A stretch of 64,000 nucleotides of DNA from Candidatus Freyarchaeum deiterrae (GTDB taxonomy: Archaea > Asgardarchaeota > Jordiarchaeia > Jordiarchaeales > Jordiarchaeaceae). Shown here one piece after another: positions 1-19,600 of this stretch (positions within the stretch are counted from its first letter, which is position 1; every line of letters starts with the position of its first letter). The notes below the pieces were generated by a model. The model did not search any database and was not told where the DNA came from. It saw only the letters and a program-made list of their open reading frames with translations. The translations under genes and the position numbers were made by a program. The DNA is taken from assembly GCA_037305845.1 (NCBI GenBank), contig CP147778.1, positions 256,001 through 320,000 on the forward strand, written 5' to 3'.

Positions 1-3000
1 TGCCAAAGGACATCAAGGATTACCCTCTCGTTCTTGATGATAACGGTCATATGGTACCAATCAATGATGTGTTTTGGACACCTACTCACCATCATGACTT
101 AATCAAGGATTTTCTGATTTCCCAGAAAGGCGAATCACATTTGGTCTCCAAGTCAATCCTTACGGATTTCGAGGACTTCATCTGCAAAAGTCTTAAAGTC
201 CAAATCTTGGATTACCATGAAATAATCACAAAATATCGAAATGCCATTGAAGGGACAGAGCAGCAAAAGATAGAGTTACAGGCTATAATGGCAGAGGGGA
301 TTATGCTTGGACTTGCGAATAGGTCATGGCAGGCGGACGAGGTGAATGAATTGCATTTTCTGCCGGTGAACGGGGTATTGGAAATCCCTCGTAATGCTTG
401 TGTTGGCTCTGTTAATGACAAAGAACTGGATAGTTTTTTGGGATCCATCGACGGTTATGTACAAGAGATGATTGAAAAAAGCGGTTATAAGAAGGCTATT
501 ATAGAATTGGGATGCGGGGATTTGAACAAAGATTTTATCGGATGCATCATTGGTAGGATAGATAGGTACGCAGAGGAGAATAAGGATGAAGAAGGTATAT
601 GCCGCTTGGATGATAAACATCACAGGTTGGTTTCAGATTGTTTGTATAGACTGACCAAAATATCTCAGTTTAGGGGATATGAAGGAATCCTAAAGAAGAG
701 AATATTGCCTGTAGATTATCGTAACTCATTGATTCTTTCTACTCCTCCAAGATGGGACACGGTAAAAGGAGAATGGCGACTTGAAAAATATGATAGGGAT
801 TGGCCTTGGGTTAGACCCGAACTAAACTTTTTGAATGAAGGGGCATCTTCGGTTTGGAAATCAATCCAATTCGTTCATCTCCATGAGGATTTCCAAGACG
901 CTGAGAAATTGATAATAAGGGAGTTCGGGATAGAACGCCTTAATATTAGAGCATTGATTATGCACTTCCTATTACCAAGGGACGAGCCTAGGACTTCCCT
1001 CTTCTTTGATGATTCATTAATCGCATTCATTGGACCTTCCCATAAGATGAATAATACCGATAAAATCAAAAAAACTTTTCTTGGTTATTTGAATGAATAT
1101 TATAAGGAAAGTAAACATGCGGGTGAGAAACTGTCCATTGAAGATAAACCGTGTCTCTACGATGACAAACCAGTGCCAGTCTGGAGAACGCCAAAAGAAT
1201 TCGCCTTCAAAATAAATGAGGATTTGGAGGTATTGGGATACAATAACCTTAGCGAGGACTTCTCTGAAGAGGGAGGATGGGATAGAAAGACGCTCACAAA
1301 TATGGGGGTTGTGGACAGACTTGAATTCGAGATTATAGGGAAAGCAATCCGTAGATACTCTGCCGAAGACAGGAACACTGATACGGATAGAGTGATACTG
1401 AGAACTCTTATACTCTGCTTACGTGAAAGAATAGGCACTTACGATGATTGGAAGAAACTATCTGATGTAAAATGGGTGCCTACTATAGATGGCAAGTGGA
1501 ACAAGCCAAGCTCCGCACTTCCTCTTACAGAAAAAATTGGAAAGTTGATTGGTGATTATAAGCTCAATTCTCTTATCGACTTTGCGTCTTTAAAAGGTGA
1601 AGAGGAGGATGAATTATCGAAGTTCACTGAAGAGGACTTCAAAAATATTGGTTTCAGGAACACCCCTACTTTTGATGAATTGATAGAAGTATGGACGCAT
1701 TACCAGAATGAAAAGAAAAGCCCACCACCAGAACTCTTTGACGAACTCGAAAATAGGTTCCGGGGGAATAAGGAAAAGTTTCTACATACGAAATATACGG
1801 GTGAAATATTATATTTCGTAGATGATGAATGGAAAGACCCAAAATTTGTGGTAATGGGCAAACGGGAAGATTTCCCAGAACCGATAAGAGAAAGATTCGC
1901 ATTCACGAGTAAACATGAGAACCTGTTAAAATGGATGCGTGGAGAGCTAGATACAGAAGAAAGACCCAGGATTAAAGTGAAGGACGCACTTGCGATAGTG
2001 GACGACCTTTCTGATGAGGAGATGAAATCTGTCTGGGATTTTATCATAGCCCGACGGACCGAAATAGATGAAGGATTGAAAAATGAGTTCAAGGAAAAGA
2101 AGATTTTCCTTTATGATGACCAACGTTATGCTCCCATCAGGATATTGATTCCATCGAGTGACGTAACTGGTCTAAAGTTCAAAGGGAAGCTCGGGAACTG
2201 GCTGTCAATCGGTTCTGAGACTAGTCGGAAGGCAATGGACACGCTGTCCAGCCTAGGAGCACAAGAATTAGATAAAATCATCCATGAACAAATCAACCTG
2301 CAGGATTTAATAAAATGTATGATAACCGAAAAACCCAGACCGGGGATGACTCTTTGGTCCGACTACCTCCTGGTAATATCGAAAATGATTGATGGAGGGG
2401 TTACAATCCCCACCGATTTTGAGGCAGTTCCTTTTGAACAATCTTCTGAAATAGTCTTTAAAGCGCCGAAGGAAATCCTGTTAAGGGATAACTCAGGAGT
2501 ATGGGAGCTGTTCCAAAATGAGAACAGGTTGAATATCTTAGATCCTACCTTGTTCTTGGATGAGAAGATATCTGCGGATAAGTTGGAAAGTTGGTTAAGA
2601 AGATGTGGTGCAAGAAACTTCAAAAAGGTCTTGGGGGGCATCCAAGAACCACATATAAGCGAAGCGGAGCAAGAAACTAATCTTACAGATGACTTCAAAA
2701 ATGCGTTGAAAAGACTTGAAGAGAGTGTCAGCTCAGAGTTTGAGGTTGATGATCAAAATCTCATCAATCAAAAGATAAGTGGATTACGAGAAGCAATCAT
2801 ATACTCATGCAAGAAGATAGTGCGATTATATGAAATAGACATGACCCAAATCGATGGTGGTCCCTCTATATCCAAGGAGATATCCCAATCCTGCTATTTA
2901 GCGAAGAATAATACAAGATGGATTATCTTTATGGGAAAAGATTCCGAGAACTATATGTTAGACCTAGAAAAGATGGTTAGAGAGGATTTCAACCCTGGCT

Positions 3001-3986
3001 TTGGAGATATATACCGAAAGAGATTTTGGGAGAGTACAGTAAAATCCGCTTTCTTTGACCAAGCAACAGATATAACTCGTGAGCGGGTATTACCTAATTT
3101 AGCTGAAAACATAAGTAAGCTAGATAAGTGGTGGAGTATCTATCTCTCAGACCCAAATAAATCGTCTTTCCCTACGCTAGATGGTGATTTTTGGTGGCCT
3201 GCCCTTGGTCTTGATGACGAAGGTAATGAAGAAAAAAGAGTGGCTATATTGAAAGGTGAACTGCTGAAGAATAGAAAGGTGATGTTCAACTTATTTTCAA
3301 TGGCTACTTTATTGAGCGCAAACGTTCAGAGAAATCAAATAAAGAGCTTCTTGGATATCCTAAAGGGCAAAGGGCTGTCATTCAGTGAGATGTACGATAT
3401 GGAGGAAGAAGAGGTCATTAGAAAGATGATTGATGATATGTTTGGGGATATCGACAGTAAAGGTCTCACAGAGAACATCTACCCTGAACTCAGACGTCGG
3501 ATATTTGATATTCTGACCTTGAGAAGGGCGATGAAGGATGAAATCATAGGTGGGAACATACTAAGCATGATAAAATCTTATGAAGATGATGGCATTTCCC
3601 CTGAGCTTTTCTTTACCCGTGGCCGAGGGTATGGAGCAAAACCATTCATGAAAGGGTTCAAAGGAATGTTCACAGGGCAAATATATTTCTTCGTAAGAGA
3701 GATGGCCAGGCTCGGGCTCGCGGACAAATGGAAAGAAATAGCTTTCCATACCCCGTCTCAGGTGAGGAAATTGATTGATAACTTGGGCGGAAGAGTACCC
3801 TCAGAGTCCAAGGATGGTTGGAGAGAAGGTTTGGCCCAATCCATGATGCGCTCTATAAATGATTACCCCAATCTGAATGGATGGTACGATATCCCATTTT
3901 TCATATATTATGACGAGTTCTGTAGAGAATGCATGCGAGGTAATCCTCCGCATGAATGCGAGATGAATTGTTATCAACGTGAGTGA
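1..3986 (+). CDS. Very large (>1311 aa) defence-island protein, 5'-truncated by the window; sacsin-like repeat segments and a Cys-rich C-terminus
   Basis: The frame is open from base 3 (PKDIKDYPLVLDDNGHM...), so the true start is upstream. Segments such as KWVPTIDGKWNKPSSAL resemble sacsin-like proteins. The stop overlaps the SNF2 start. Confidence 0.6.
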   Translation, partial: PKDIKDYPLVLDDNGHMVPINDVFWTPTHHHDLIKDFLISQKGESHLVSKSILTDFEDFICKSLKVQILDYHEIITKYRNAIEGTEQQKIELQAIMAEGIMLGLANRSWQADEVNELHFLPVNGVLEIPRNACVGSVNDKELDSFLGSIDGYVQEMIEKSGYKKAIIELGCGDLNKDFIGCIIGRIDRYAEENKDEEGICRLDDKHHRLVSDCLYRLTKISQFRGYEGILKKRILPVDYRNSLILSTPPRWDTVKGEWRLEKYDRDWPWVRPELNFLNEGASSVWKSIQFVHLHEDFQDAEKLIIREFGIERLNIRALIMHFLLPRDEPRTSLFFDDSLIAFIGPSHKMNNTDKIKKTFLGYLNEYYKESKHAGEKLSIEDKPCLYDDKPVPVWRTPKEFAFKINEDLEVLGYNNLSEDFSEEGGWDRKTLTNMGVVDRLEFEIIGKAIRRYSAEDRNTDTDRVILRTLILCLRERIGTYDDWKKLSDVKWVPTIDGKWNKPSSALPLTEKIGKLIGDYKLNSLIDFASLKGEEEDELSKFTEEDFKNIGFRNTPTFDELIEVWTHYQNEKKSPPPELFDELENRFRGNKEKFLHTKYTGEILYFVDDEWKDPKFVVMGKREDFPEPIRERFAFTSKHENLLKWMRGELDTEERPRIKVKDALAIVDDLSDEEMKSVWDFIIARRTEIDEGLKNEFKEKKIFLYDDQRYAPIRILIPSSDVTGLKFKGKLGNWLSIGSETSRKAMDTLSSLGAQELDKIIHEQINLQDLIKCMITEKPRPGMTLWSDYLLVISKMIDGGVTIPTDFEAVPFEQSSEIVFKAPKEILLRDNSGVWELFQNENRLNILDPTLFLDEKISADKLESWLRRCGARNFKKVLGGIQEPHISEAEQETNLTDDFKNALKRLEESVSSEFEVDDQNLINQKISGLREAIIYSCKKIVRLYEIDMTQIDGGPSISKEISQSCYLAKNNTRWIIFMGKDSENYMLDLEKMVREDFNPGFGDIYRKRFWESTVKSAFFDQATDITRERVLPNLAENISKLDKWWSIYLSDPNKSSFPTLDGDFWWPALGLDDEGNEEKRVAILKGELLKNRKVMFNLFSMATLLSANVQRNQIKSFLDILKGKGLSFSEMYDMEEEEVIRKMIDDMFGDIDSKGLTENIYPELRRRIFDILTLRRAMKDEIIGGNILSMIKSYEDDGISPELFFTRGRGYGAKPFMKGFKGMFTGQIYFFVREMARLGLADKWKEIAFHTPSQVRKLIDNLGGRVPSESKDGWREGLAQSMMRSINDYPNLNGWYDIPFFIYYDEFCRECMRGNPPHECEMNCYQRE

Positions 3987-6654
3987 TTCGAGATTGGTAA
4001 AGAGGGTAAAAGACAGACTGGGTAGGTATCATAATATCGGTAAAGTTCTGGCGGAAGAGTTATTTGGTGGTTTCCTCCAGTATGTGGTGGACTTTGGGGA
4101 GGAAGGGATACAAAGGCTGAAAGTCGATGAACTGGATATAATACCCTTGGAAGAAAGATTGTACGATGGTAACTATAACTTGAAAGAATTCATCCTCAGG
4201 ATAAAAGCTTCACTGATGTTCAATGATGATATAAAGACTGGGTGTGTATCCAGAATGAAACTTGACCTGATACCACACCAGATAATAATGGCAGATAAGG
4301 TCATGAACACAAAATCCAAAGGGTTCCTTATCGCAGATGATGTGGGACTTGGCAAAACGATAGAAGCGGGACTAGTAATCCGTTCCATGATAGCTCATGG
4401 AAGGGCGGACAGGATTCTACTTCTCTGTCCTGCAAATCTAGCGCCTCAGTGGAGGGAACAGTTATCAGAACGCTTTGATGAGTGGTTCGATATATTAAGG
4501 ACAGAGATGAACATCACCGATCCAAGGAAATGGGACTATAGTCCTAGGATGATAGCAAGCATCCAGACACTCAGGTTACCACAACACAGAGATATACTGT
4601 TGGAGAGCGTACTGGACTGGGATCTCGTAATAGTAGATGAGGCGCACCACTTAACAGCAAGGGAGTATGCCTCGAAAATCACCTCAAAAATCGATAAGAA
4701 CAAGAGCTATCAGTTGCTCGACAGACTTAGAGAGAGGAGCAAGTTCTTTCTCTTCCTGACGGCTACCCCACATCAAGGTGAGGACGATAGGTTCGCCATG
4801 TTGTTAAGGCTACTTGACCCGGAACATATCAAGAACACTAAGGATCTAGATGGTCTCGGTCCCAAGATAAACGAGTTGATGGGGAGGAACATAAAGTCTG
4901 AGGTCACGGATTTTGAGGGTAACCAACTGTTCAAAGGGCATGATATGTTCAGACATGAGGTCATGCCTACTTTGGAGTATTCATCTTTCTTGGAAGAGTT
5001 GAAACAGTACGTGAATGATGGATTTATATCGTTGGATGAGCAAAAAGGTAACCGTTTAAGTGCGGAGGGCTTCGTCCTCACATCATTCTTGAAGTTAGCC
5101 GCTTCAAGTCCGGAGGCCATAAGGAGGACATTGACCAATAGATATGACAACTTAAAGAAAGTAAGCGTTGTGTCAGCCGTCAGTTCTGAGCATGACGATA
5201 GGTTTGAAGGGGAGTATGAGGAGAAATCTGCGTCAGAAGCGAAAGAACTTTTCGAGGGTGAAAGAAAAAGGATTGAGAACCTTATTAACAAATTGAAGAA
5301 TATCAGAGATACAAAATTAGCGGAACTGGACGAGATACTTGAGCAAGAGGGTATACTTCATGACAAAGACAAAAGGATTCTGATATTCACAGAATACCGT
5401 GGTACACAGGAAATGATTAAGAACCACTTAGAAGCAAATTTTGAGAAAGGGTCGGTACTACTGATGAATGGGGACATGGACGCTAACCAGAAGAGAAACG
5501 TGGTGAAGAAGTTCGATACCGAGAAAAGGTTCCTTGTATCGACAGAGGCTGGTGGAGAGGGCATCGATCTTCAAAACAATTGCCATATCATGGTCAATTA
5601 CGACATACCATGGAACCCTATGAGGTTGCACCAGAGGACGGGTAGGCTAGACAGATACGGCCAAAAAGAAAAGGTTCATGTGCACTACATTGTCGTTAAA
5701 GGAACGATAGATGAAAAGATACAGCTTTTCCTAAAGGAGAAAATCGAGCGAATAGAGAGAAGATTGGGCGATTTGAAAGGCGACAAAGCAGAAAGACTAC
5801 GTGAAGATGTACTTGGCCAACTAACATTGTCCAGAGATGACATATCAAAGCTATATCTTTCAAATATCAAAGAATCTGAGGAAAGGTTAGAAAAGAACAT
5901 AGAAAATGCTATCGAATCGCTTAAAAGACAGGAGAGCATATTCAAAGAGATAAAAAGGTTCGACCTGAAAGAATTCAGAAAAATAAAATCTGAATATGAA
6001 CTTGGAAATCTTGAAGAACTCATTAGACAATATCTAGCATCTATGCACAAACGGATGGTCGAAGAGGGGGATGGCGTCGTTCACTTCGATATACCTGACG
6101 AAATAAGTGATATGAAGGTCTTCCACGGCAGAAGACTCAATATGTCTAAAATCAGAGGGACGTTCGATAGAGTTAAATCTGGAAAGCTTGGCATAGATTT
6201 GCTTGGCACAGGGAACGAGTACATAGATGCCATGTTGGACAGGATGATTAAAAGGGCTGACAGCGGTGATGTGTTAGCCTCAAGGATATATGTGGATGAA
6301 GGGCATATGCTCGATGGGAAAAGAGGGCTACTAGCATCCTACATAGTGACATCCACTCCCACTGTAGGGGGGAAACAAAGTTTTGATGGTGTCGAGTTCA
6401 TTTTTTATAATCCCGATGAGGAAAGATTGTATGATTCACAAGAGGACTTGAGGGAAATCCTAAAAACCATATGTGATGAGCGAAGGCACCATATGCTGAA
6501 TCCGCATGATGTTCCAGATGAAAATAAGATTGTTAGCATCGCCAAGGAAATCGAGAACTTCATAAACGGGAAAATCCGTGATGGTCGTATAGGTTCTGTG
6601 AACATGAACTCAATAGCTTGGTTGGAATTCTATGGGCAGAAGCCGCTCGCTTGA
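3979..6654 (+). CDS. drmD: SNF2/RapA-family helicase, DISARM DrmD-like
   Basis: ADDVGLGKT (Walker A), DEAHH, TATPHQG and QRTGRLDRYGQ motifs; lies upstream of the methylase and drmABC. Confidence 0.8.
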   Translation: MSDSRLVKRVKDRLGRYHNIGKVLAEELFGGFLQYVVDFGEEGIQRLKVDELDIIPLEERLYDGNYNLKEFILRIKASLMFNDDIKTGCVSRMKLDLIPHQIIMADKVMNTKSKGFLIADDVGLGKTIEAGLVIRSMIAHGRADRILLLCPANLAPQWREQLSERFDEWFDILRTEMNITDPRKWDYSPRMIASIQTLRLPQHRDILLESVLDWDLVIVDEAHHLTAREYASKITSKIDKNKSYQLLDRLRERSKFFLFLTATPHQGEDDRFAMLLRLLDPEHIKNTKDLDGLGPKINELMGRNIKSEVTDFEGNQLFKGHDMFRHEVMPTLEYSSFLEELKQYVNDGFISLDEQKGNRLSAEGFVLTSFLKLAASSPEAIRRTLTNRYDNLKKVSVVSAVSSEHDDRFEGEYEEKSASEAKELFEGERKRIENLINKLKNIRDTKLAELDEILEQEGILHDKDKRILIFTEYRGTQEMIKNHLEANFEKGSVLLMNGDMDANQKRNVVKKFDTEKRFLVSTEAGGEGIDLQNNCHIMVNYDIPWNPMRLHQRTGRLDRYGQKEKVHVHYIVVKGTIDEKIQLFLKEKIERIERRLGDLKGDKAERLREDVLGQLTLSRDDISKLYLSNIKESEERLEKNIENAIESLKRQESIFKEIKRFDLKEFRKIKSEYELGNLEELIRQYLASMHKRMVEEGDGVVHFDIPDEISDMKVFHGRRLNMSKIRGTFDRVKSGKLGIDLLGTGNEYIDAMLDRMIKRADSGDVLASRIYVDEGHMLDGKRGLLASYIVTSTPTVGGKQSFDGVEFIFYNPDEERLYDSQEDLREILKTICDERRHHMLNPHDVPDENKIVSIAKEIENFINGKIRDGRIGSVNMNSIAWLEFYGQKPLA

Positions 6655-6767
6655 ATTGAAAGGTTTATAGATATGGACACCCAGAATAAAGAGATTAATA
6701 ATATATGAAAGGAAATAAAAATCGTTACGGTAATTTGTCCAAATAGAAAAAAGAGGATGAACTTGAG

Positions 6768-8612
6768 ATGGGATTGAAGGTGGCAGATTTTTTCTGTGGT
6801 GCGGGTGGCTTTTCCGAAGGTTTCAGACAGATGGGATTTGAGATAGTTTATGGGACTGACATATGGCCACATGCAGTAGAGACTTTTCGAAAGAACTTCC
6901 CTGAGGCTGATGTACCAGACCCTATCGACATATTAGACATAGAGATAAAAGACTTACCTGATGTAGATGTGATAATTGGCGGTCCCCCCTGTACTTTTTT
7001 CTCTCCATCAAATAACGGTGGGAATGGCAATACCGACAAAGGTATGAGACTGGTAAAAGGGTTTCTAAAGATAATAGATGAAATGAACCCTAAATGGTGG
7101 ATAATGGAGAATGTTCCAAGACTATCACTGACTTTACCTAAAAGCATCTCTCTCTATGATTCAGCGATTGGGAAGAAAGACAAGTGTTTCGAAATACCAA
7201 ATAGAAATGTATTGAACGCTGCAGATTATGGGGTACCTCAAGGAAGAAAAAGACTTTTCGTAGGGAACTATCCATCGCCTAAGCCGTCCCACTCAGACAA
7301 AGGAGAAGGAGGAACGGAGCAATGGAGACTGATGCGGGATGTTATAGAAGGCCTGCCTTATCCACTGGACGAAGAGAACAGTAGTAATGTTAACGACCCC
7401 CTCTACACAGGAATCACATTGGATTGTGATGAATTCACTGAACATAGGTACGATACCTTCCTTACAAAGATAGAGGTAGAAGAAGCGAAGAGATTGAAAA
7501 CCAGACACAGGTATTATGGAAAGATAAACTTCCCGGACGATATCGACAGACCAGCAAGGACCGTTATGGCTTCGATTAGCAGAACAAGCAGAGAGATGAT
7601 GGTTATTAAAGAGAATAGAGGTAGTAAGGAAGGATATAGGATTCCGACCTTACGGGAATGTGCCTCCCTTCAATCTTTCCCTATTACCTACCAGTTTTGG
7701 GCTCAGAACATCTCTCCGAAATACAAATTGGTAGGCAACGCTGTCCCTCCCATGTTATCGAGGGCGATAGCTAGAGCGATACTGATTGTTGAAGGACGTA
7801 CCCCTCCAGATGAACCAATTATTCGAAAGAAAGTGACCGAGATACCTGAAGTTCTACCTGTTGATGCAATCTCCAGAGGAAGGCTAAGAACCAATTATCG
7901 CCTCAACAGACATTATTGCGACTTCATAGATCATCATGCCAACCATTCAAGAACTGGTTGCCGTATAGATATTGATAACGAAGGTAAGCGGCCAAAAGAA
8001 CACCCTATGTATAGTGGAAAACATGGTTGGAGGAGAAAAGTGATACGGCATATCAAGGAATGGAGGTGCGTCCTATATACTGGGTACGCTAAGAATGCCG
8101 AGAACATGGTAGTTTCTTTGAAAGATGCTTTGAGCTTATTGAATGACAGCAACCCACTAGAGTTCAATAAAAAGATGACTTGCATCATTGACGATATTAT
8201 TAATAAAAAGATACATGAGATACCAGACGCAACAACGTGCCAGGGTATATTGTCGGGTAAGGTCAAGGGCATAAAGGAGAGCCCCCTTTGGATTAGAAAA
8301 ATGTTGACGAAAATCGTAAATGATAATTTTCCTGAAAAAGAAAAAACAACGAACAAAATCAAAGATTATGGACGTATCCATGTCAGATCGGAAATAATGT
8401 TAACTCAGAGAGATGCAGCACAGTTGATAATAGCAGCTCTTACATGTGCCGTGATGAATGAGAGCGATGTATGGTTATTAGAGAACTGGGGTAAGCACTT
8501 TTGGTTGAAGGAATGGCCAGTAATTGAGAAACTCCCTTACAAAGAATCTAAATGGGTAAAAAAAATCGAGGGAAAAATAAAGATGCATAAATGGTCAGGC
8601 GATACGAATTGA
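6768..8612 (+). CDS. DNA (cytosine-5) methyltransferase with a ~270-aa C-terminal extension
   Basis: Motif I FCGAGG, motif IV GPPC, motif VI ENV, motif VIII QGRKR, motif X GNAVPP. Confidence 0.95.
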   Translation: MGLKVADFFCGAGGFSEGFRQMGFEIVYGTDIWPHAVETFRKNFPEADVPDPIDILDIEIKDLPDVDVIIGGPPCTFFSPSNNGGNGNTDKGMRLVKGFLKIIDEMNPKWWIMENVPRLSLTLPKSISLYDSAIGKKDKCFEIPNRNVLNAADYGVPQGRKRLFVGNYPSPKPSHSDKGEGGTEQWRLMRDVIEGLPYPLDEENSSNVNDPLYTGITLDCDEFTEHRYDTFLTKIEVEEAKRLKTRHRYYGKINFPDDIDRPARTVMASISRTSREMMVIKENRGSKEGYRIPTLRECASLQSFPITYQFWAQNISPKYKLVGNAVPPMLSRAIARAILIVEGRTPPDEPIIRKKVTEIPEVLPVDAISRGRLRTNYRLNRHYCDFIDHHANHSRTGCRIDIDNEGKRPKEHPMYSGKHGWRRKVIRHIKEWRCVLYTGYAKNAENMVVSLKDALSLLNDSNPLEFNKKMTCIIDDIINKKIHEIPDATTCQGILSGKVKGIKESPLWIRKMLTKIVNDNFPEKEKTTNKIKDYGRIHVRSEIMLTQRDAAQLIIAALTCAVMNESDVWLLENWGKHFWLKEWPVIEKLPYKESKWVKKIEGKIKMHKWSGDTN

Positions 8613-11600
8613 CGAAAGCGGAAGTAAGAAAGCAACTAGTTAAGAACTTGGAAAGAGATTTGCTTGGCCCAAAGAAAGGGCCGGATGAAGAATTCATGGA
8701 ACTACCCACACAACGATATGTAATTGGTATTCTTTTCCCTTCAAGTACACCGATAGGTCCAGAACAGGACATAAACAATCCTCCTGAAGGGGAGGACGAT
8801 GAAGAATATAGCCCGATGTATAGAACTCCCCTTGAAAACGAGCTCCGTCCCTCGTCCATGGGAATGTCGTTCATCGTTGATAAGAATATTACATCACTGC
8901 CCGTCGAGATAAGATGGGCGACATATATACAAAAAGAAGAATATGGTTCTTTCAGGCGGTGTGAACACACAGTCTCTATGGAACTTGATGTATCTGCCGA
9001 TGACCTCAAGGGGGATGAGCCTCTTTACAGAAAAGATATGGCTGATGCTAAAGAATTCAGAGTGTTCTGGAGGACATACAGAGGAGAGAAGGAAGATCGT
9101 CCTGTTAGCGTCTTTCTCTGGAACAAGGAAACTACTTCATCGAACAAAGCGGAGCTGTCCCAGCGATGTATGTTCTCTCCTTCAATAAGGATAGAGTTCA
9201 AAGACAGGTTCATCATCGCAAGAAAGAGGATGACGATTGCCAGTGAGGAGGAGGATTTGAAATCCCTAAATCTCCTTTATCATGATAGACATGAGTTCGG
9301 CGTTGGTCATGGTTGTTCAATAATGTGGATGGATGTACAGGGGAACCGCTGTGGGCTCATTGAGACGACATTCATGCCAACGTATCATTGGCAACCCTTG
9401 TCGTTTAGGGAGGAAGAATATCCTTTTTATATGAAGAATATGTCAGAAAAAAAAAGGAAAGAACAAATCCAGGAAGAACTTGAACTGTTAAAGTCTTATG
9501 AGGAGTGGATATCTGGAACGTTCTCTGAAGTTGAGAAGAATCAATTAGAGCCTATGTTCCACGAGACCTTTGACAGACATAAGAATGAATGCATGACATC
9601 CCTCGTCAGGATTAAAAAGGGCATCGAACTGTTAGAAGATGACCAAGTTTTCAACGCATTCTGCTTTATGAACGAAGCGATGTTCCTTCAAAGGGCATAT
9701 TACGACGCTGCTGTTGAATATAGAAAAGAGGGCAAAAAGTTCAAAGATCCTTCTCTCACAGATTCGAAGGTAATCGCGAAGCATAGATGGAGACCGTTCC
9801 AAATCGCTTTCATTCTACAGGCCATCCCAGGGATTGTGAATCCCAACGATGATGATCGAAAGATTGTAGACCTTCTCTGGATTCCTACAGGAGGAGGTAA
9901 GACAGAGGCGTATCTAGGTCTTGCCGCCTTTACTATGGCATACAGGAGGCTAAAAAGCAAGGCGCTAGAAGACTATGCAGGTGTTAGCGTCATGATGAGA
10001 TACACGCTACGCCTCTTAACTATACAACAATTCCAAAGAGCCGGAGCTTTGATGTGCGCTTGCGAAGCCATCAGGGACAAGAACAAAGCTAAATGGGGTG
10101 AAATTCCGTTCCTTGTTGGACTTTTCGTCGGTCAAAGCACCACTCCGAACATCATAGGTAAAAAGAATGATTATGTCAAGTACAATGAAGACGGATGGAA
10201 AAACAAAAATTGTGAAGATACTGCATATTATGCATTGGAATATTGGAAAAAGGAACATCAGAAACCTACGGGTAGTAATCCTTTCCAATTGTTATACTGT
10301 CCTTGGTGCGGTGAGGAGCTTACTGAAAAGAGCTATACGATTGACGATGAAAAACAAAATGTAATCACACATTGCGTTCGAGACGGGTGCCTTTTCAAAC
10401 TTCTGGAAATCCCTGCGATAACAGTAGACGAAGATGTATACAATCGCCTCCCCTCTATGGTCATAGGCACAGTTGACAAATTCGCCATGCTCCCGTTCAG
10501 CCCCAAAATAGGTAAAATGTTCGGGCACGTAGACAGGTACTGCCCTACACATGGCTTTCTCTGCCGAACCGAGAATCATTCAGATTCGCATAAGAGCGGT
10601 GTGCAAGTGCGTTCAATAAGGAATCCGCTTAACCCGCCTAATCTGATTATACAGGATGAACTGCACCTTATCAATGGGCCGTTGGGTAGCATGGTCGGCA
10701 TTTATGAAAGTACAGTAGATAGGCTTTGTTCCAGAAATATTGGAACTGTTATCGTAAAGCCTAAGGTCATCGCGTCGACTGCAACAATACGAAGAGCAAG
10801 GGATCAGGTCTGGAACATCTTCGCAAGGGATGTCAAGCGTTTCCCTGCTCCTGGGACCGAGTTCTCAGATTCTTTCTTCGTTAAGGAAGTCCAAGATGAT
10901 AACAATGCCAAGCAATTCATAGGTGTTTTCCCCTCGGGGATAGGTCAGAAAACCGTAATGAAGAGAACGTTATCCAGCCTTCTATTATCTGCGTTGGAAT
11001 TTAATAAGAAAGGTTCACCAGTGGAGGACTGGGACGAATATTGGACCTTGGTTTCCTATTTCAATAGTATCCGCGAACTTGGCAGTGCTAAGACAACAAT
11101 CGAGGACGATGTTAACAGTGCTGTTAAAGAAAGGAGAAAAATATTACCAATCGATGAACTTACAAGCAGAATCAACTCTAAGGATTTACCATCCATTTTG
11201 GCAAAACTTAACATCAGAGGGGACACTGACAAAGCCGTCAACATCTTGGCATGTTCCAACATGTTCTCGGTCGGTGTCGACGTCCAGCGACTTGGGTTGA
11301 TGGTAATGAACAACCAGCCAAAAGCGACATCAGAATACATCCAATCTACAGGGAGGGTAGGAAGGAACAAGTCAGGGTTGGTCATAGTGTTATATAATTG
11401 GGTGAGACCAAGGGATCAATCACATTATGAAAGGTTCTATGATTACCATAACAGGATACAATCATATGTGGAAGCCATGACCGTGACCCCGTTCTCAGAA
11501 GGCGCTAGTGAACGCGCCCTGCATGCCCAATATGTGAGCATGATAAGGATATTGAGCGATGCGCAATTGTCACGCCAGTCAGAAGCAGGTAATTTCAATT

Positions 11601-11929
11601 CTGTAATAAGGTGCTCCTCAGCCAGCCGTGCGTATGAAGAGTGGTTAGAGGAGCGAATGAAGACTGTCACAGGGGAAAGTAGTGGAGACCTGAAAGAAAG
11701 GCTGACGAAATTTCTAGATAAATGGATTGATTGGGTCGATTTAGTAGGGAAAGAACTATGTTATGAAAAAGGCCAGTACGGTCAGTGCAGAAACTACCTA
11801 TTGAGGAGAATAGACGATGTCCGTCAACCGGAAGACGGAGGCCTTAAAAAATTGACCCCTACCTCAATGAGGAACGTTGAGCAACAAGTGCCGTTACATA
11901 GGGTGAAAATACCAAGGTCGGGAAGGTGA
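8591..11929 (+). CDS. drmA: DISARM helicase DrmA
   Basis: WRPFQIAFIL, PTGGGKTEAY, RYTLRLLT, QDELH, SEYIQSTGRVGR; 1112 aa; followed by DUF1998 and PLD genes. Confidence 0.92.
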   Translation: MVRRYELTKAEVRKQLVKNLERDLLGPKKGPDEEFMELPTQRYVIGILFPSSTPIGPEQDINNPPEGEDDEEYSPMYRTPLENELRPSSMGMSFIVDKNITSLPVEIRWATYIQKEEYGSFRRCEHTVSMELDVSADDLKGDEPLYRKDMADAKEFRVFWRTYRGEKEDRPVSVFLWNKETTSSNKAELSQRCMFSPSIRIEFKDRFIIARKRMTIASEEEDLKSLNLLYHDRHEFGVGHGCSIMWMDVQGNRCGLIETTFMPTYHWQPLSFREEEYPFYMKNMSEKKRKEQIQEELELLKSYEEWISGTFSEVEKNQLEPMFHETFDRHKNECMTSLVRIKKGIELLEDDQVFNAFCFMNEAMFLQRAYYDAAVEYRKEGKKFKDPSLTDSKVIAKHRWRPFQIAFILQAIPGIVNPNDDDRKIVDLLWIPTGGGKTEAYLGLAAFTMAYRRLKSKALEDYAGVSVMMRYTLRLLTIQQFQRAGALMCACEAIRDKNKAKWGEIPFLVGLFVGQSTTPNIIGKKNDYVKYNEDGWKNKNCEDTAYYALEYWKKEHQKPTGSNPFQLLYCPWCGEELTEKSYTIDDEKQNVITHCVRDGCLFKLLEIPAITVDEDVYNRLPSMVIGTVDKFAMLPFSPKIGKMFGHVDRYCPTHGFLCRTENHSDSHKSGVQVRSIRNPLNPPNLIIQDELHLINGPLGSMVGIYESTVDRLCSRNIGTVIVKPKVIASTATIRRARDQVWNIFARDVKRFPAPGTEFSDSFFVKEVQDDNNAKQFIGVFPSGIGQKTVMKRTLSSLLLSALEFNKKGSPVEDWDEYWTLVSYFNSIRELGSAKTTIEDDVNSAVKERRKILPIDELTSRINSKDLPSILAKLNIRGDTDKAVNILACSNMFSVGVDVQRLGLMVMNNQPKATSEYIQSTGRVGRNKSGLVIVLYNWVRPRDQSHYERFYDYHNRIQSYVEAMTVTPFSEGASERALHAQYVSMIRILSDAQLSRQSEAGNFNSVIRCSSASRAYEEWLEERMKTVTGESSGDLKERLTKFLDKWIDWVDLVGKELCYEKGQYGQCRNYLLRRIDDVRQPEDGGLKKLTPTSMRNVEQQVPLHRVKIPRSGR

Positions 11930-13680
11930 TTTTTATTAACGAGATGAGACCAAGCAAATTGATAATGACCTTTGGACCTGGATCTATAGTCGATTTTCCA
12001 GATAGGGAATCTTACATCGTGATGGGACCAGATTATTGGAAGTCACATGAAACGATACAAGAACCTAGACTTGCTAAGAAATTGGATTGCGACCATTTTG
12101 GTTCGCCCCAAAAGAGATGGGACGACAAATCCCATTTTTTTGTGGGCATCGCCGTCCGTGATTTCCCTCATATGAGGGTATGTCCATCTTGCGGTAAGCT
12201 TTCATATGAGTTCCGTTGCAAGGATTGTAAGGGATCTGAAGATGAAAAAGGCCCTAAGACGATGCCTCCGAGACTCGTCGCCGCTTGTAAGGGTGGTCAT
12301 ATCCAAGATTTTCCATGGAAAGCGTGGTGCGGTTGCACTTGCAACCGTAATGATGCACGGTTGTTCCTAATCGGAGAGAGTATAGAGGCGGAAGGTTCGG
12401 ATTTGAAAGTCGTATGTAAAAATTGTAGGAGCGAGAGGAATTTGATGCTGGCACTAGGGCAGTTGAAATACAGTTGCAATGGGGAACGGCCGTGGTTAGG
12501 CGATGAAGAGACCTGTTCGGAAAAACTATATGGGCTGATGAGAGGGGCGAGCAATGTTTACTTCCCAGTGATTGAGAGCTCTTTAAGCATACCACCTTAC
12601 TCAACAGAGATACATAAGGATGTAGAAAAGCATATGGACGCTGCTAGGGCAAACTGGGTTAACAATAACATTAAAGGGTACATCGAAAATAATGATGAAC
12701 TGAAAAAGTACATCGAAGATGGGAAATACACCGAAAATCAACTTATAAGGGCTTTCGGCGAGAAATTTGGAGGGCCTTCCTCCATCGATATAAAAGGGGA
12801 GGAGTGGGACCGGCTCGTTCACGATGTAAAATACGGTCCAAACGATGATTTCCAGACAAAAAGTATTGACATAACCGGCTCCAATCTCGATAAATGGTTC
12901 GCCCGCATCGTACTTGTTACAAAACTGCGCGAGGTCGTCGCAGTGACTGGTTTCAATAGAGTGGAACCAAACAATCCTGACACGAAACAAAAATTGAGGA
13001 TGGAGATGGAGAACTGGTCGGATTTCCTTAATAATCATCCGGATATAAGTCCTAGTCTGGACATCGAAATATCTAGAAATTGGCTACCAGGTGTAGAACT
13101 GTTCGGTGAAGGTATCTTCTTCAAGTTTAAAGAGTCCATGGTCAATAGATGGAATGGTGACTCAGCTAATATTAAACGTTGCAAACGGATAATCTCGCAG
13201 CCGAAACAACCCTTCAAAAAGGAAGGAGTAGACCTCACCGACGAGCGGACAATCCTTGTGCATACCTTCGCTCACCAGTTCATTCGTCAAATATCACTAG
13301 AATGCGGTTATTCTATGGCGTCTCTAAAGGAAAGACTTTATGTTAGGAGAAGTGATGAAAGGGACATGTGCGGTGTCCTTATTTACACAGCCTCGTCAGA
13401 TAGTGAAGGAACCCTAGGTGGACTAGTAGCACAAGCAAAGGACAGCAGAACCCTTCTTGGTCATATCTCAAGTATAATCGATTCCGTAAGGTTTTGTTCT
13501 CAAGATCCATTATGCGGAACACATGAACCGACCACTACGAAAAACCCATGGGGAGCCTCATGCCATTCATGTTCCCAATTGCCTGAGACCTCCTGCGAGG
13601 GACTACAGAACAAACTATTAGACCGTTTCACATTGATAAGCAATGATGAAGTGACGGGATATTTCGATGACAGTCTATAA
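11926..13680 (+). CDS. drmB: DISARM DrmB (DUF1998)
   Basis: RPSKLIMTFGPGSIVD N-terminus, HTFAHQFI, GTLGGLV and CSQDPLC...CHSC...SCE Cys cluster. Confidence 0.92.
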   Translation: MIFINEMRPSKLIMTFGPGSIVDFPDRESYIVMGPDYWKSHETIQEPRLAKKLDCDHFGSPQKRWDDKSHFFVGIAVRDFPHMRVCPSCGKLSYEFRCKDCKGSEDEKGPKTMPPRLVAACKGGHIQDFPWKAWCGCTCNRNDARLFLIGESIEAEGSDLKVVCKNCRSERNLMLALGQLKYSCNGERPWLGDEETCSEKLYGLMRGASNVYFPVIESSLSIPPYSTEIHKDVEKHMDAARANWVNNNIKGYIENNDELKKYIEDGKYTENQLIRAFGEKFGGPSSIDIKGEEWDRLVHDVKYGPNDDFQTKSIDITGSNLDKWFARIVLVTKLREVVAVTGFNRVEPNNPDTKQKLRMEMENWSDFLNNHPDISPSLDIEISRNWLPGVELFGEGIFFKFKESMVNRWNGDSANIKRCKRIISQPKQPFKKEGVDLTDERTILVHTFAHQFIRQISLECGYSMASLKERLYVRRSDERDMCGVLIYTASSDSEGTLGGLVAQAKDSRTLLGHISSIIDSVRFCSQDPLCGTHEPTTTKNPWGASCHSCSQLPETSCEGLQNKLLDRFTLISNDEVTGYFDDSL

Positions 13681-14458
13681 AAGAACATCATTGGAAAGGT
13701 TAGCTGATTTGGCAACCAAGATAAAGATAACTCTATCCCCTGAGAAAACCACGATGTTCTTGAAGATGTTGGAAGAAAGAGGCTTCACACATCCGACATC
13801 ATTCGATATAGATAGACTAGGTCTCCCGCCAAACAAAGCTGATTTGTTAAAAAGGTACATCGGAAGCATTGAGAAAAAGGAAGAATTAATTGCAATCTCA
13901 TTATCCCTTTTAGATGACACAAAATCAGAGTCCTCATCCCCAATGGAAGTATGTTGGACAGGTCCTTCAGAAAATCGGCATATACGCATGACATGGCCTG
14001 CTCTTTCGGAGATGCTGTTATCTGCTGAGAAAAGCATACTTATAATCGGTTATGCAATCAACGCCAACATGAGAAGCTTAATGGACTATCTGGAAGAGAA
14101 ATCTAAATCCGGTGTGAGGCTGGTTTTTATGATGGATAGATTGAAAGAGAAAGAGGATTTCCTTTGCTGGGCCAAGGGGCTACCTCAACCACCAGAACTC
14201 TATGATAGACCCGAAGACCCAGAAGACCCTATGTCCGCGCTTCACGTCAAATGCGTGGTTGTCGACGAGAAAGTAGCTATGTTCGGATCAGCGAACTTAA
14301 CATATCATGGCATGAAGGGAAATATAGAGTTAGGTCTAGTATTACACGATGAGAAAATCGTCAAAAACATAGTAGATTTATTAGAGGGGTTAAAAAAGGA
14401 ACTGGTCAGATTCAACCTGTCCGAATATAGAGCGAACAGCAATGTTGGAAATAGTTGA
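13667..14458 (+). CDS. drmC: DISARM DrmC phospholipase-D-like nuclease
   Basis: Single HKD motif HVKCVVVD...GSANLT...NIELG; WTGP motif; last gene of the operon. Confidence 0.9.
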   Translation: MTVYKRTSLERLADLATKIKITLSPEKTTMFLKMLEERGFTHPTSFDIDRLGLPPNKADLLKRYIGSIEKKEELIAISLSLLDDTKSESSSPMEVCWTGPSENRHIRMTWPALSEMLLSAEKSILIIGYAINANMRSLMDYLEEKSKSGVRLVFMMDRLKEKEDFLCWAKGLPQPPELYDRPEDPEDPMSALHVKCVVVDEKVAMFGSANLTYHGMKGNIELGLVLHDEKIVKNIVDLLEGLKKELVRFNLSEYRANSNVGNS

Positions 14459-14569
14459 AAGGAAAAAAGCGATTTCAGCGTTCAACAGACTTGGCAAATA
14501 GACATTGAGAAGGATTGTCAGGAGACACACACAGAAAAAACGCATTACGAATTTGTAAAAGTTGCTGAA

Positions 14570-14765
14570 TTAGTTTGTATAGTTGTTATTTGTAGTTTTC
14601 TTTTTGTTTTTGTTATTTATTTGGATGTCTGGACTAGTTTCGATTATTGCCCTTACTTTTTTCTTATCTGAACGATGTTTACGTTTGTTTTTATTTTTTC
14701 CTTCGATTATTTTTATTGTGGTTGCGTTTGCAATTTTTGGTAAGCATCTCTTGGGAAATTTAATA
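14570..14765 (-). repeat. Degenerate copy of the 3' end of the PIN gene (15621-~15825)
   Basis: Translates ...PKRCLPKIANATTIKII...KVRAIIETSPDIQI, versus PKKCTPEIANATTIKIT...KVRAIIETSPDIQI in the gene; indels present. Confidence 0.85.
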
Positions 14766-14946
14766 AGATAAAAAGCCGCAAAAAGTTTGCCTCTACATTT
14801 TAGAAGAAGAAACAGTTTAGCACTTTTTTCTGTGTAGCAGAGAATAAAAGTAATATTAAAATCGGCGAAATACAATAGATAATATTATTGAATGTTAGTA
14901 GTTTATGAGCATTAAAATCATTGAAGACAAATAAAGAGGTATCAAT

Positions 14947-15576
14947 ATGAAAAACGAGGAGAGAGCAGAAGAAAAAAGAAAAGAAATAGTGGATATTTTA
15001 AATGATGCCCTTAAAAACCATATTACTCAATATATGAAAGATAATTCAAATTTGCGTATTGAAGATATATCCTCAAGAATAACAAATAACTTTGTGAGAA
15101 TAACTTCTCCTGAGTCAGATGATAAAATTTATTTGATTACTGAGAGAATGATGGGTAGAGGAGGAGGCAGAAGCGTAAAACCAGGAAATATTTTTTTAAA
15201 CTGGAAAAAGCTCATAGTAGTTCTTTCTGAAAGCTTTCTGACAATTTTTGGAGCCATTCAAATGCCACTCTTAATTCCATTTGCATGTCTTGTCGTTTGG
15301 GATAAACTTTATTCTTTATCAAATATTCCGATTTCAGAAAAACACGCTGCTGTTATTTATGTTATGTGGAAAAATCGGGATGAAAAACAATGCATCAGAG
15401 AAGACTTGATTTTAAATTATATAAACACAGAACTATCTAAATTTAATCTCCCTACGATGAGCCAAGAAGAACTAAACCAGATATTGAAAGATTTAGAAAA
15501 AATGAAAAGCATTGAAAAAAGTAAAAGTGATAGAAATAAATGGTGGTTACGAGAATGGGTTAGGGTTGAATACTAG
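14947..15576 (+). CDS. Hypothetical protein with a central hydrophobic segment and a possible C-terminal winged helix
   Basis: GAGGT RBS; 209-aa ORF; AT-rich; ends ...LNQILKDLEKMKSIE...KWWLREWV. Confidence 0.7.
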   Translation: MKNEERAEEKRKEIVDILNDALKNHITQYMKDNSNLRIEDISSRITNNFVRITSPESDDKIYLITERMMGRGGGRSVKPGNIFLNWKKLIVVLSESFLTIFGAIQMPLLIPFACLVVWDKLYSLSNIPISEKHAAVIYVMWKNRDEKQCIREDLILNYINTELSKFNLPTMSQEELNQILKDLEKMKSIEKSKSDRNKWWLREWVRVEY

Positions 15577-15620
15577 TAGCTATGAAAAAAGCTTTAATTT
15601 AAGAAAGCCGCTATCTCGGT

Positions 15621-18225: not shown

Positions 18226-18669
18226 GTGATAAGTTTGAGTTATGAACCGCATGGAAATGAGTATATTGAGATGTACGGCGCTTTAGCGAAACGGTTTGTT
18301 TCCATAGATGGTCAGGGAGAAGTTAGTATTATTGTTGAGGGAAGCGATGAGGAAAGGATTTTATTGTATCTGATTGGAAAATTGTATGCTTTAAAGGATG
18401 GTTTAGTGCCTTCTGCGTTTGTGGACAGCTCAGAGTTTATGGAGAAATTAGGTATTCCTGAGGATTCTCTTGTGGAACTGTTGAAAGAACTTGGTAATAA
18501 GCAGCTGATAAGCGAGAATAGAATGGTTAGTAGGATGGGTAGAAGGGGCAGGAAGAGTAGGAAGGGTATGGGTGAGGGTAGAACGGTTTACTATGGTATA
18601 ATTGTCGATAAGCTTGAGCCGGTACTTAAAATGATAGAAGCGAGACTTTCTGGAAGTGAGGATGATTAG
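18226..18669 (+). CDS. Hypothetical protein with a winged-helix-like C-terminal half
   Basis: ERILLYLIGK...EFMEKLGIPEDSLVELLKELGNKQLI pattern. Confidence 0.6.
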   Translation: MISLSYEPHGNEYIEMYGALAKRFVSIDGQGEVSIIVEGSDEERILLYLIGKLYALKDGLVPSAFVDSSEFMEKLGIPEDSLVELLKELGNKQLISENRMVSRMGRRGRKSRKGMGEGRTVYYGIIVDKLEPVLKMIEARLSGSEDD

Positions 18670-18688
18670 AAGCATTTTGGAAGCCGGA

Positions 18689-18871
18689 GTGGCTATTTAA
18701 GAAGCGGACTACGATCTCTCTCTCTCTCTCTTTCTGATGCTATTAAAAAGGAGTTGTTGCGGGAGATGGCTAGGTTACAGTTGAAGTGGGGGAGAAAGGT
18801 GGATTTTGAGGATGTTATAATGAACCTGGTTCTTCAGGGAAGAAGAAGGCCTGAACTATTGGAAGAGGCTT
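18689..18871 (+). pseudogene. Antitoxin-like gene, frameshifted at a (TC)8 run and cut by mini-element copy 1
   Basis: KRTTISLS and DAIKKELLREMARLQLKWGRKVDFEDVI...RPELLEEA lie in different frames; the element starts immediately after EEA. Confidence 0.6.
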
Positions 18872-19086
18872 CTGACATACTCCCCACCTTGAAAGGTTGG
18901 GGGTTCTACACTTCTGTTGTTAGAAGTGTGGGGGGCGTGTCACCGCCCGGTTAATGGCTTCCGCACCTTCTTCTTCGTCGGGTGAGCAAGCCCTATTATT
19001 TTTTTTCCTCTTTTTTCGGTATTTAAACTCCAAGCAATTCATTCCCGCCTTAAAGGGACCGGGGCTTTCTTGCCAATCATCTTTAG
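18872..19086 (-). mobile_element. Non-autonomous IS200/IS605 (IS608-like) mini-element, copy 1, with omegaRNA-like scaffold
   Basis: Minus strand: TTAC target (19087-19090), left end AAAG+CCCCGG hairpin, right end GAAC-CCCCAACCTTTCAAGGTGGGG-AGTATG-TCAG; four copies in the window. Confidence 0.9.
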
Positions 19087-19227
19087 GTAATTAAAAATTC
19101 AGGGTGCTTCTTACCTATTTCTTGAACGAAGGGAATTCATAAAGTCTATAATAATTTCAGATTTCTTGGTTTCAAATTAACTCTTCATGTGTTTCTTGTC
19201 GCTCTTTTACTTCTTCTTCTTTAATGC

Positions 19228-19599: not shown

Positions 19600-19600
19600 A

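Follow-up and report, generated by a model that had tools for sequence, protein, structure and literature searches.

A probable DISARM-family defence system with a giant sacsin/Tiamat-type ATPase in Candidatus Freyarchaeum deiterrae

A variant DISARM locus on an accessory island

The window analysed here, a stretch of 64,000 nucleotides (nt) from the archaeon Candidatus Freyarchaeum deiterrae (genome positions 256001-320000 on a single contig), opens with a cluster of DISARM-related genes. We consider it probable that this locus encodes one methylation-based defence system of the DISARM family, with a variant architecture, carried on a horizontally acquired island of ~22 kilobases (kb). The gene set consists of vsr, a giant GHKL ATPase, a DrmD-like SNF2 helicase, a long C5-methyltransferase, DrmA, DrmB and DrmC. 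Coordinates are relative to the window unless they are given as genome or L001 positions.

Six open reading frames (ORFs), all on the + strand, occupy positions 3..3986 (open at the 5' end), 3979..6654, 6768..8612, 8591..11929, 11926..13680 and 13667..14458. A first-pass annotation of this DNA had described six co-oriented genes with four of the five junctions overlapping, and the ORF coordinates bear this out. The overlaps measured 8 nt between the giant and the SNF2 gene, 22 nt between the methylase and drmA, 4 nt between drmA and drmB, and 14 nt between drmB and drmC. The sole non-overlapping junction, between the SNF2 gene and the methylase, is an AT-rich spacer of 113 nt (6655..6767, +) with the TATA-like words TTTATAGA and TAATATAT. 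From its sequence, this spacer, the only intergenic one in the operon, is a possible site of an internal archaeal promoter that would serve the methylase and drmABC.

Genes were named by profile searches with Pfam, PADLOC and NCBIfam, and motifs were inspected in the translations. The profile matches bore out the names given earlier (giant, SNF2, C5-methyltransferase, drmA, drmB, drmC). The giant gene is cut by the window edge, so that the window holds its C-terminal 1,327 codons (1..3986, +); a further 2,418 nt, counted from the gene start at L001:13582, precede the window. In the genome this ORF spans 253582-259986 and encodes 2,134 amino acids (aa). The first-pass annotation was right about the coupling of this gene to the SNF2 gene, whose GTG start overlaps the giant's stop codon, and its figure of more than 1311 aa reflected the truncated copy.

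The DrmD-like SWI2/SNF2 helicase (3979..6654, +; 891 aa) contains the Pfam domains SNF2-rel_dom, ResIII and Helicase_C. Its best PADLOC score was for DrmD (8.4e-91), with BrxHI (1.2e-87) and HmaA (5.5e-80) close behind. The score of 342.5 bits against the NCBIfam DrmD model was under the cut-off of 610, and the identity to an annotated class 1 DrmD was 29% over 515 aa (176 bits). DrmA, a YprA-type DExH helicase (8591..11929, +; 1,112 aa), scored 1002.6 bits with NF038325 (cut-off 950) and 1e-241 with the PADLOC DrmA model. DrmB, the DUF1998/MZB zinc-binding partner of DrmA (11926..13680, +; 584 aa), scored 429.1 bits with NF038324 (cut-off 240) and 6e-69 with the PADLOC DrmB model; CxxC pairs are present, and PF09369 MZB matched at 2.3e-7 (31.9 bits versus a cut-off of 24.2). 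DrmC, a nuclease of the phospholipase D (PLD) family (13667..14458, +; 263 aa), matched PLDc_2 (2e-15) and the PADLOC DrmC model (1.7e-34), and its score with NCBIfam DrmC_I (104.9 bits) was under the cut-off of 133.

The catalytic motifs are intact in the SNF2 helicase (GLGKT and DEAH), in DrmA (GGGKT and DELH), in DrmC (HVKCVVVD...GSANLT, that is, HxK(x)4D...GSxN) and in the methylase described below, and the ATP-binding residues are kept in the giant.

The giant GHKL ATPase

At the N-terminus of the giant protein there is a CxxC...CxxC zinc ribbon. Next, at aa ~60-450, comes a GHKL ATPase of the sacsin/Tiamat type with its transducer-like domain. Beyond the ATPase we observed ~1,400 aa of family-specific alpha and beta-hairpin units and then a C-terminal cluster of four cysteines. 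The identity of the ATPase was given by Pfam SACS (3.4e-13 at aa 69-165) and by the NCBIfam sacsin ATP-binding domain, and the PADLOC model of TmtA (Tiamat) matched at 1.9e-24, confined to aa 59-451. The first-pass annotation had called the protein sacsin-like, which was correct, with the evidence lying upstream of the window.

An AlphaFold model of aa 1-1100 (mean predicted local distance difference test, pLDDT, of 60) had its best fold match in the SR1 region of human sacsin (5v44; Z 12.5, 168 residues, 23% identity). The next matches, with Z from 8 to 10, were SMCHD1, MutL, Hsp90/GRP94, GyrB/ParE, MORC (Z 8.5-8.7) and Topo VI-B, and these reach into the transducer-like second domain. When the profile of the giant family was compared with the PDB, sacsin was the only match (2e-6). 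The N-box residues E74/N78 and the G1 and G2 boxes were at least 90% conserved across the family.

The remaining ~1,700 aa are predicted, with fair confidence (mean pLDDT of 75 for the C-terminal half), to form recurring helix-plus-beta-hairpin units. The count of an internal-repeat motif in the giant was 10 compared to 3.8 +/- 1.6 in shuffles, which is suggestive and is not relied on here. In a profile-level search no NOV_C or PD-(D/E)xK nuclease was found in the giant, as a Pfam search along its whole length at E up to 1 returned SACS alone. The segment at aa ~1692-1831 weakly resembled minimal metallopeptidase folds (Z 4.4-4.9) with no HExxH motif, which we treat as a lead only; an inactive metalloprotease-like fold has been reported for Tiamat (bioRxiv 10.64898/2026.09.30.754977). 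We also considered an HhH-GPD glycosylase fold at the C-terminus and found it unsupported, with Mag1/AlkA at Z 4.3-4.4 in a low-confidence region and an hhalign probability of 0.4% versus a genuine HhH-GPD alignment.

Relatives of the giant are very few. We found seven among 5.8 billion protein clusters, while a HMMER search with the C-terminal half recovered 41 proteins among 1.84 billion representatives. Essentially all of the 41 are giants, in two length classes of ~2,050-2,280 aa and ~1,650-1,735 aa. SACS was present in 5/5 full-length members checked, and two pieces of ~785 aa had no Pfam match. On viral contigs and plasmids we found nothing relevant to the family. The giant appears to be a rare sacsin/Tiamat-like ATPase and a conserved extra subunit, not a chance neighbour.

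Two details of the family could be of interest. An insertion of 89 aa in the giant of the window (aa 497-585; L001:15070-15336) is missing from all six close relatives and is predicted, at low confidence, to be beta-rich. The C-terminal CxxC-x8-C-x3-C cluster, which follows 'DIPFF.Y.DEFC' (window 3900-3986, aa ~2105-2134), is kept in all giants of ~2,060 aa and is missing from the ~1,700-aa type; the model confidence in the region of the cluster is < 50. Catalytically dead HNH-like zinc fingers have been described at the C-termini of some Tiamat-like proteins (bioRxiv 10.64898/2026.09.30.754977).

The methylase and DNA modification

The C5-cytosine DNA methyltransferase (6768..8612, +; 614 aa; PF00145 2e-49) combines a catalytic core (aa 1-340) with a family-specific C-terminal domain of ~270 aa whose fold is unmatched. 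The motifs FCGAGGF, GGPPC(T), ENV, QGRKR and GNAVPP are intact. Among the PADLOC models, the generic ones, MTase_II (3.3e-62) and DruM (6.3e-46), scored better than DrmMII (2.6e-35). The C-terminal domain had nine close relatives in 5.8 billion clusters, and an ESM Atlas search with this domain was uninformative (scores <= 0.79, template modelling scores <= 0.46).

The methylase gene is interleaved with the rest of the locus, lying between the SNF2 gene and drmA. It is the sole PF00145 (Dcm-family) match in the whole genome. Since there is no second methylase at the locus, nor a second C5 enzyme in the genome, the GHKL/SNF2 pair and DrmABC share one modification gene.

Two motifs are given in the published methylome of the organism, GAT5mC, which was called from Nanopore data, and CCWGG (PMC11529989). 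Either of them could be the product of the window methylase, and the sole C5 methylase of the genome is now singled out as the enzyme to match with these published 5mC calls. Genome-wide, GATC was depleted to 0.56 and CCWGG to 0.62-0.65 (observed/expected). The same island carries an orphan gene for a restriction endonuclease of the BglII/BstYI family (PF09195, 6.5e-47; L001:12001-12507, - strand; window -3999..-3493) without a methylase of its own. Enzymes of this family cut sites that contain GATC. Protection against this nuclease might be a further function of the DISARM methylase.

Linkage of the giant, the methylase and DrmA in relatives

DrmA has thousands of homologues, and the copy in the window belongs to a discrete clade of ~33 clusters at 43-74% identity. 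In a FastTree phylogeny this clade had a Shimodaira-Hasegawa-like support of 1.0 and a stem length of 0.46. Canonical bacterial DrmA proteins are 40% identical or less to the window DrmA. The close clade was not found in 401 Nitrososphaerota genomes, where only relatives at 37-43% were present, and the giant was absent from 400 other sampled Nitrososphaerota genomes.

Homologues of the giant, the methylase and DrmA were considered linked when their longest contigs had exactly equal sizes in base pairs (bp). By this measure the giant P0002 and DrmA P0027 both lie on a contig of 19,026 bp, and the giant P0003, DrmA P0028 and methylase P0017 all lie on a contig of 27,276 bp. The giant P0005 was paired with methylase P0013 (15,073 bp), and three methylases were paired with a DrmA, namely P0010 with P0021 (5,886 bp), P0016 with P0032 (11,179 bp) and P0015 with P0033 (21,189 bp). 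These six exact coincidences compare to ~0.03 expected by chance for ~530 pairs. Every contig-linked DrmA falls in one subclade around the DrmA of the window.

A fused form of the operon

Searches with the giant family alignment also retrieved loci of a second type from metagenome-assembled genomes (MAGs) of three other phylum-level lineages. They are L002 from a Thermotogae MAG, to which L006 is closely related, L003 from a Nitrososphaerota MAG, and L004, which is identical to L007, from a Nitrososphaeria MAG. Each is a tight operon of four genes with overlapping junctions, in which an SNF2 gene (~990 aa) is followed by a giant homologue (~1,700 aa), a fusion protein of 1,927-1,947 aa and a long C5-methylase. 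The fusion protein consists of DEAD, Helicase_C, MZB/DUF1998 and PLDc_2 domains, that is, DrmA, DrmB and DrmC parts in one polypeptide, and it retains intact Walker A, DExH and HxK...GSANLT motifs. No separate DrmA was found in the three fused-operon genomes.

The long methylases of the fused operons were 39-43% identical to that of the window over the full length, C-terminal domain included, and the giant homologues were 30-38% identical in the N-terminal 480 aa and 22-27% beyond. The giant is thus homologous and the methylase orthologous, including its private C-terminal domain, and the overall logic is that of the window locus. The fused form differs in that its giant is without the Cys cluster and the final ~400 aa, its SNF2 gene, only distantly related to that of the window, lies upstream of the giant, and its methylase comes last. 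Since the giant and the methylase occur with a YprA-type helicase/DUF1998/PLD arm in two molecular forms, chance adjacency is hard to invoke. Linkage of the giant to drmABC beyond this genome, which the first-pass annotation had named as the point to look for, was found both on the equal-size contigs of 19,026 and 27,276 bp and in the DrmABC-like fused operons.

We weighed a single system against the explanation that two adjacent and independent systems merely travel together in a defence island: a Tiamat-like pair of GHKL and SNF2 proteins (possibly with Vsr and the methylase), and a minimal DISARM core of the methylase with DrmABC. The 113-nt spacer with its TATA-like words is placed exactly between the SNF2 gene and the methylase and could, from its sequence, mark the start of a second transcription unit. 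It is common for defence islands to stack systems, and Tiamat-like proteins frequently have a helicase partner in neighbourhoods that lack DrmAB (bioRxiv 10.64898/2026.09.30.754977). Between the split and the fused architecture, the SNF2 proteins are related at the family level only (63 bits), and the window SNF2 is nearer to canonical DrmD (176 bits).

Other observations also count against the reading of the locus as one system with a dedicated clamp. The gene order differs between the two architectures, and the fused helicase is Dpd-like (DpdJ/DpdK, 2e-46), not DrmA-like; as the sequences stand, what the architectures have in common is the giant and the methylase, not the whole system. The giant-DrmA linkage in close relatives is read from equal contig sizes only, not from gene order, and the giant homologues P0006 and P0007 had no matching DrmA contig among the best 120 DrmA matches. 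About 1,700 aa of the giant had no convincing match to a solved structure (for the C-terminal half, nothing with E < 0.001 in Foldseek against the PDB and Z <= 6.6 in VIA-align), and the role of this protein is proposed by analogy with MutL, MORC and Tiamat.

Two independent systems would nevertheless leave several regularities to be explained. Both architectures contain the giant together with the private-domain methylase, and in the fused operon the helicase-DUF1998-PLD gene sits between them with overlapping junctions. The DrmA proteins found alongside the giant form a discrete clade, and there is one methylase only for both halves. We therefore regard two co-travelling systems as an unlikely explanation, though one that deserves to be taken seriously, and continue with a single DISARM-family system. 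The first-pass annotation had offered a choice between a new subtype and a recruited module, and both halves of that choice proved partly true, as the locus looks like a distinct subtype built of a GHKL + SNF2 module joined to a DISARM core.

Two neighbouring genes of the fused operons were recorded. In the Thermotogae-type operons a HEAT-repeat protein of 768 aa is encoded directly upstream of the SNF2 gene (L002:1016-3322 and L006:228-2534). At L004:20344-20994 (- strand), immediately 3' of the long C5 methylase and on the opposite strand, there is an HhH-GPD glycosylase gene (8.8e-14), which could be a functional analogue of Vsr or a mere housekeeping neighbour.

The island, Vsr and horizontal transfer

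A gene for a Vsr mismatch endonuclease (8.7e-22) is located 319 nt upstream of the giant and is co-oriented with it. In L005, the closest metagenomic relative, whose giant is 65% identical, a Vsr gene (8.9e-21) overlaps the giant's start. Because Vsr precedes the giant in both places, it is a likely seventh member of the system, and by its sequence assignment it fits a system that deposits 5-methylcytosine.

The locus lies in a segment that is missing from related genomes. In DNA comparisons with five genomes of the same genus, the flanks were conserved, with 70-85% identity for an upstream nucleoside 2-deoxyribosyltransferase (NDT) gene and 78-80% for a 581-aa gene at 15621-17366. From L001 ~9,710 to window ~15,620, a segment of ~22 kb, there was no DNA match in these five genomes, and this includes the stretch at 14459-15620 downstream of drmC. 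The giant was absent from 399 other genomes of the phylum, five of the same genus among them. We conclude that the island was acquired horizontally, because it is absent from relatives while its flanks are conserved.

The first-pass annotation had called the island consistent with horizontal acquisition from a supposed lack of the G/T strand skew seen in neighbouring genes. Our conclusion stands on the absence from the other genomes of the phylum, and the skew argument fails. The coding-strand keto, purine, GC and AT skews and the codon usage of the six genes ranged from the 12th to the 94th percentile of the 1,261 long ORFs in the genome, and the only unusual composition measure was the strand-symmetric tetranucleotide distance of the island (98th percentile).

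The distribution of the island also bears on whether the genes serve defence at all. They could instead form a host chromatin, epigenetic or repair module, with a GHKL clamp, an SNF2 remodeller, a C5 methylase and Vsr, and with DrmABC acting in repair. The trio of domains parallels the eukaryotic silencing machinery, the YprA/MrfA relatives of DrmA act in DNA repair, and the host is an Asgard archaeon. A host module of this kind is very improbable given that the island is absent from all 5 same-genus and 394 other genomes of the phylum searched, that the distribution is sporadic across Bacteria and Archaea, that the neighbours are of restriction type (the BglII-like nuclease and a DndB/DpdB-like gene), and that the core proteins exceed curated DISARM cut-offs. 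A defence role, as part of one DISARM-family system, is retained below.

Besides the locus itself, the ~22-kb segment holds the DndB/DpdB-like gene, a 154-aa ORF, the orphan BglII-family nuclease and a 209-aa ORF. The DndB/DpdB-like (DGQHR) gene is at L001:10117-11298 (+; PADLOC DpdB 1.6e-17). The 209-aa ORF (14947..15576, +), the last gene within the segment, had no match in the Pfam or PADLOC scan. The NDT-like gene (L001:9139-9660, -) has a weak TIR_2 match and, being conserved in the same-genus genomes, lies just outside the island. Two HEAT-repeat proteins are encoded upstream of the operon at L001:6369-8407 (+). Like the NDT-like and DndB/DpdB-like genes, they count as further genes of defence type. 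Short segments of window ~18650-21400 match many different contigs per same-genus genome at 70-85%, as a dispersed mobile repeat would; in the genome G118, one copy is placed between the HEAT gene and the NDT gene.

Proposed mechanism and significance

We propose that the C5-methylase would mark host DNA, while Vsr would repair the T:G mismatches that arise from deamination of 5-methylcytosine. The DrmA-DrmB helicase complex would load on unmethylated incoming DNA, which Bravo et al. (2022, PMC9142583) showed for the class 1 DISARM of Serratia, and the PLD nuclease DrmC would degrade that DNA; these two steps have been established or proposed for DISARM (Ofir et al. 2018; Bravo et al. 2022). 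The giant may act as a dimerising, ATP-gated DNA clamp of the MutL/MORC/Tiamat kind, without a nuclease of its own and with translational coupling to the SNF2 motor. As a pair, the giant and SNF2 could take the place of the class 2 DrmE, sensing or holding foreign DNA, or licensing the DrmAB-DrmC restriction arm. The private C-terminal domain of the methylase probably docks the methylase to the giant/SNF2 complex.

The same GHKL + methylase pair also occurs with a single fused helicase-DUF1998-PLD protein; therefore, the restriction arm is exchangeable, and the giant with the methylase is the signature of the family. As a wider proposal, which we put forward tentatively and with somewhat less than even confidence, the giant, the long C5-methylase and a RapA/DrmD-like SNF2 protein would define an unnamed, very rare defence family ('GHKL-DISARM') of Archaea and Bacteria. 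In such a family an obligate ATP-gated clamp would couple cytosine-methylation status to an exchangeable YprA-helicase/PLD arm, either split DrmABC or a Dpd-like fusion.

To our knowledge, how DISARM works is only partly understood, with no roles assigned as yet to DrmE and DrmD. A recognisable ATP clamp coupled to an SNF2 motor at the position of DrmE offers a testable hypothesis of how the accessory subunits engage DNA. If the proposal is true, this would be the first multi-subunit context where an ATPase of the Tiamat/sacsin clade functions with no nuclease of its own, and at the same time a prokaryotic machine of GHKL, SNF2 and C5-methyltransferase that parallels the eukaryotic MORC/SMCHD1 - DDM1/HELLS - DNMT axis. 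The parallel is one of logic, not ancestry, because the island was recently acquired in this Asgard genome. Tiamat-like GHL ATPases are abundant in eukaryotes. The finding joins these ATPases with the YprA-helicase defence systems, with the arm swapped and the GHKL + methylase pair kept.

Comparison with known systems

The locus fits neither canonical class of DISARM, as the first-pass annotation had stated: it combines the class 1 order with a C5-methyltransferase in place of DrmMI, and it has no DrmE. Class 1 (drmD-drmMI-drmA-drmB-drmC; Ofir et al. 2018; Bravo et al. 2022, PMC9142583) has the same order of SNF2, methylase, drmA, drmB and drmC. It differs in having an N6-adenine, MmeI-like DrmMI where the window has a C5 methylase with a private C-terminal domain, and the one DrmMI model used, PDLC02640, had no match in the genome. 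Here a 2,134-aa GHKL gene is coupled upstream, the SNF2 helicase scores below the DrmD equivalog cut-off, and DrmA, only ~35% identical, belongs to a separate clade.

An example of canonical class 1 in Bacteria is found on the plasmid p96k of Deinococcus sp. AJ005 (L009), where drmD, an MmeI-like methylase, drmA, drmB and drmC are directly followed by vsr, a C5 methylase and a type II restriction-enzyme-like 'ATP-binding protein' (PADLOC REase_II 1e-98). The association of vsr and a C5-methylase with DISARM is therefore present in Bacteria as well. Another DISARM-like arrangement that is not canonical was seen on a Bacillus cereus plasmid (NZ_AP022916.1, 28632-42365; L011). There, a PDC-S68 family ATPase precedes drmA-drmB, after which come a helicase-related protein, DUF4391, an N6-type methyltransferase and a DEAD helicase; no drmC is annotated nearby. 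A gene upstream of drmA on a B. cereus plasmid had been tried as a positive control for DrmE and proved to be PDC-S68, and PDLC02636 took its place as the DrmE model.

Class 2 (drmE-drmA-drmB-drmC-drmMII; Ofir et al. 2018) has in common with the window the C5 self-marking and the drmABC core. One could accordingly take the locus for canonical class 2 DISARM as published, with the giant or another gene as DrmE and a class-1-type drmD added, for which the C5 methylase, a hallmark of class 2, would speak. We consider this scarcely credible. No DrmE model matched the giant at E up to 1, PDLC02636 had no match genome-wide, and DrmE was not among the PADLOC hits shown for the other five proteins; NCBIfam gave the giant only the sacsin ATP-binding domain. 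An SNF2 gene is present, and the methylase, 614 aa long with its extra domain, precedes drmA, unlike the order drmE-drmABC-drmMII, and matches the generic type II methyltransferase and DruM models better than DrmMII.

Valentin-Alvarado et al. (2024, PMC11529989) described a DISARM of Freyarchaeia as class II with drmE plus class-I drmD, with drmMII and with lateral transfer of DrmA. The figure legend in the preprint of that study shows five genes, without the giant and with none named DrmE. The published system is very probably this locus. The hybrid class 1/class 2 nature is not new, because the 2024 paper reports class II with class-I drmD and a 2026 preprint reports a neighbourhood of a Tiamat-like protein, a methylase, DrmA and DrmB. 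The giant had not been recognised in the 2024 paper. The sacsin/Tiamat-type GHKL assignment of the giant, the Vsr link, the discrete DrmA clade and the fused operons are not described in PMC11529989. Our results correct the annotation of the only DISARM reported in Asgard archaea, in which there is no DrmE and the 2,134-aa subunit and Vsr were overlooked.

No sacsin-GHKL protein in DISARM-like operons is described in the 2013 HEPN paper or in the 2025 YprA survey, and the latter has no mention of a GHKL partner (bioRxiv 10.1101/2025.09.15.676423). We did not find an earlier description of the giant as a conserved subunit of the sacsin/Tiamat clade, of the private-domain methylase, of the Vsr link, of the DrmA clade or of the split/fused pair.

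The closest parallels to the giant come from the Tiamat preprint of October 2026 (bioRxiv 10.64898/2026.09.30.754977), in which Tiamat-like proteins have helicases and methylases as their most frequent neighbours. The giant and TmtA have in common the N-terminal GHL ATPase of the sacsin clade, and the similarity ends at about aa 450. Tiamat as strictly defined in that work also has a C-terminal NOV_C / PD-(D/E)xK nuclease domain, for which the Pfam scan of the giant gave no match. The 'Type III-C' neighbourhood of that work contains a cytosine methylase, GajB, DrmA and DrmB, and has a helicase fused to the C-terminus of the Tiamat-like protein. The cytosine methylase, DrmA and DrmB are also neighbours in the window locus. 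Here, in contrast, the helicase is a separate, overlapping SNF2 gene and not a C-terminal fusion, DrmC and Vsr are present, and no UvrD/GajB-like protein was found among the island ORFs scanned.

ARMADA (bioRxiv 10.1101/2025.09.15.676423; PMC13463889) resembles the window locus in combining a YprA/DUF1998 helicase, a RapA/BrxHII-like SNF2 protein and a methylase. Its methylase is a PglX-like adenine methylase (ArmB) and its YprA, DUF1998 and nuclease parts are fused (ArmC), whereas the window has a C5 methylase and separate DrmA and DrmB. Dpd and Druantia are grouped with ARMADA as other systems with YprA helicases. Finally, in the prokaryotic MORC/paraMORC restriction-modification systems (Iyer, Abhiman & Aravind 2008, PMC2292703), a GHKL ATPase is encoded in operons of restriction-modification type with helicases and predominantly cytosine methylases, while the GHKL ATPase of the window belongs to the sacsin/Tiamat clade and not to MORC (Z 12.5 for sacsin versus 8.5-8.7 for MORC).

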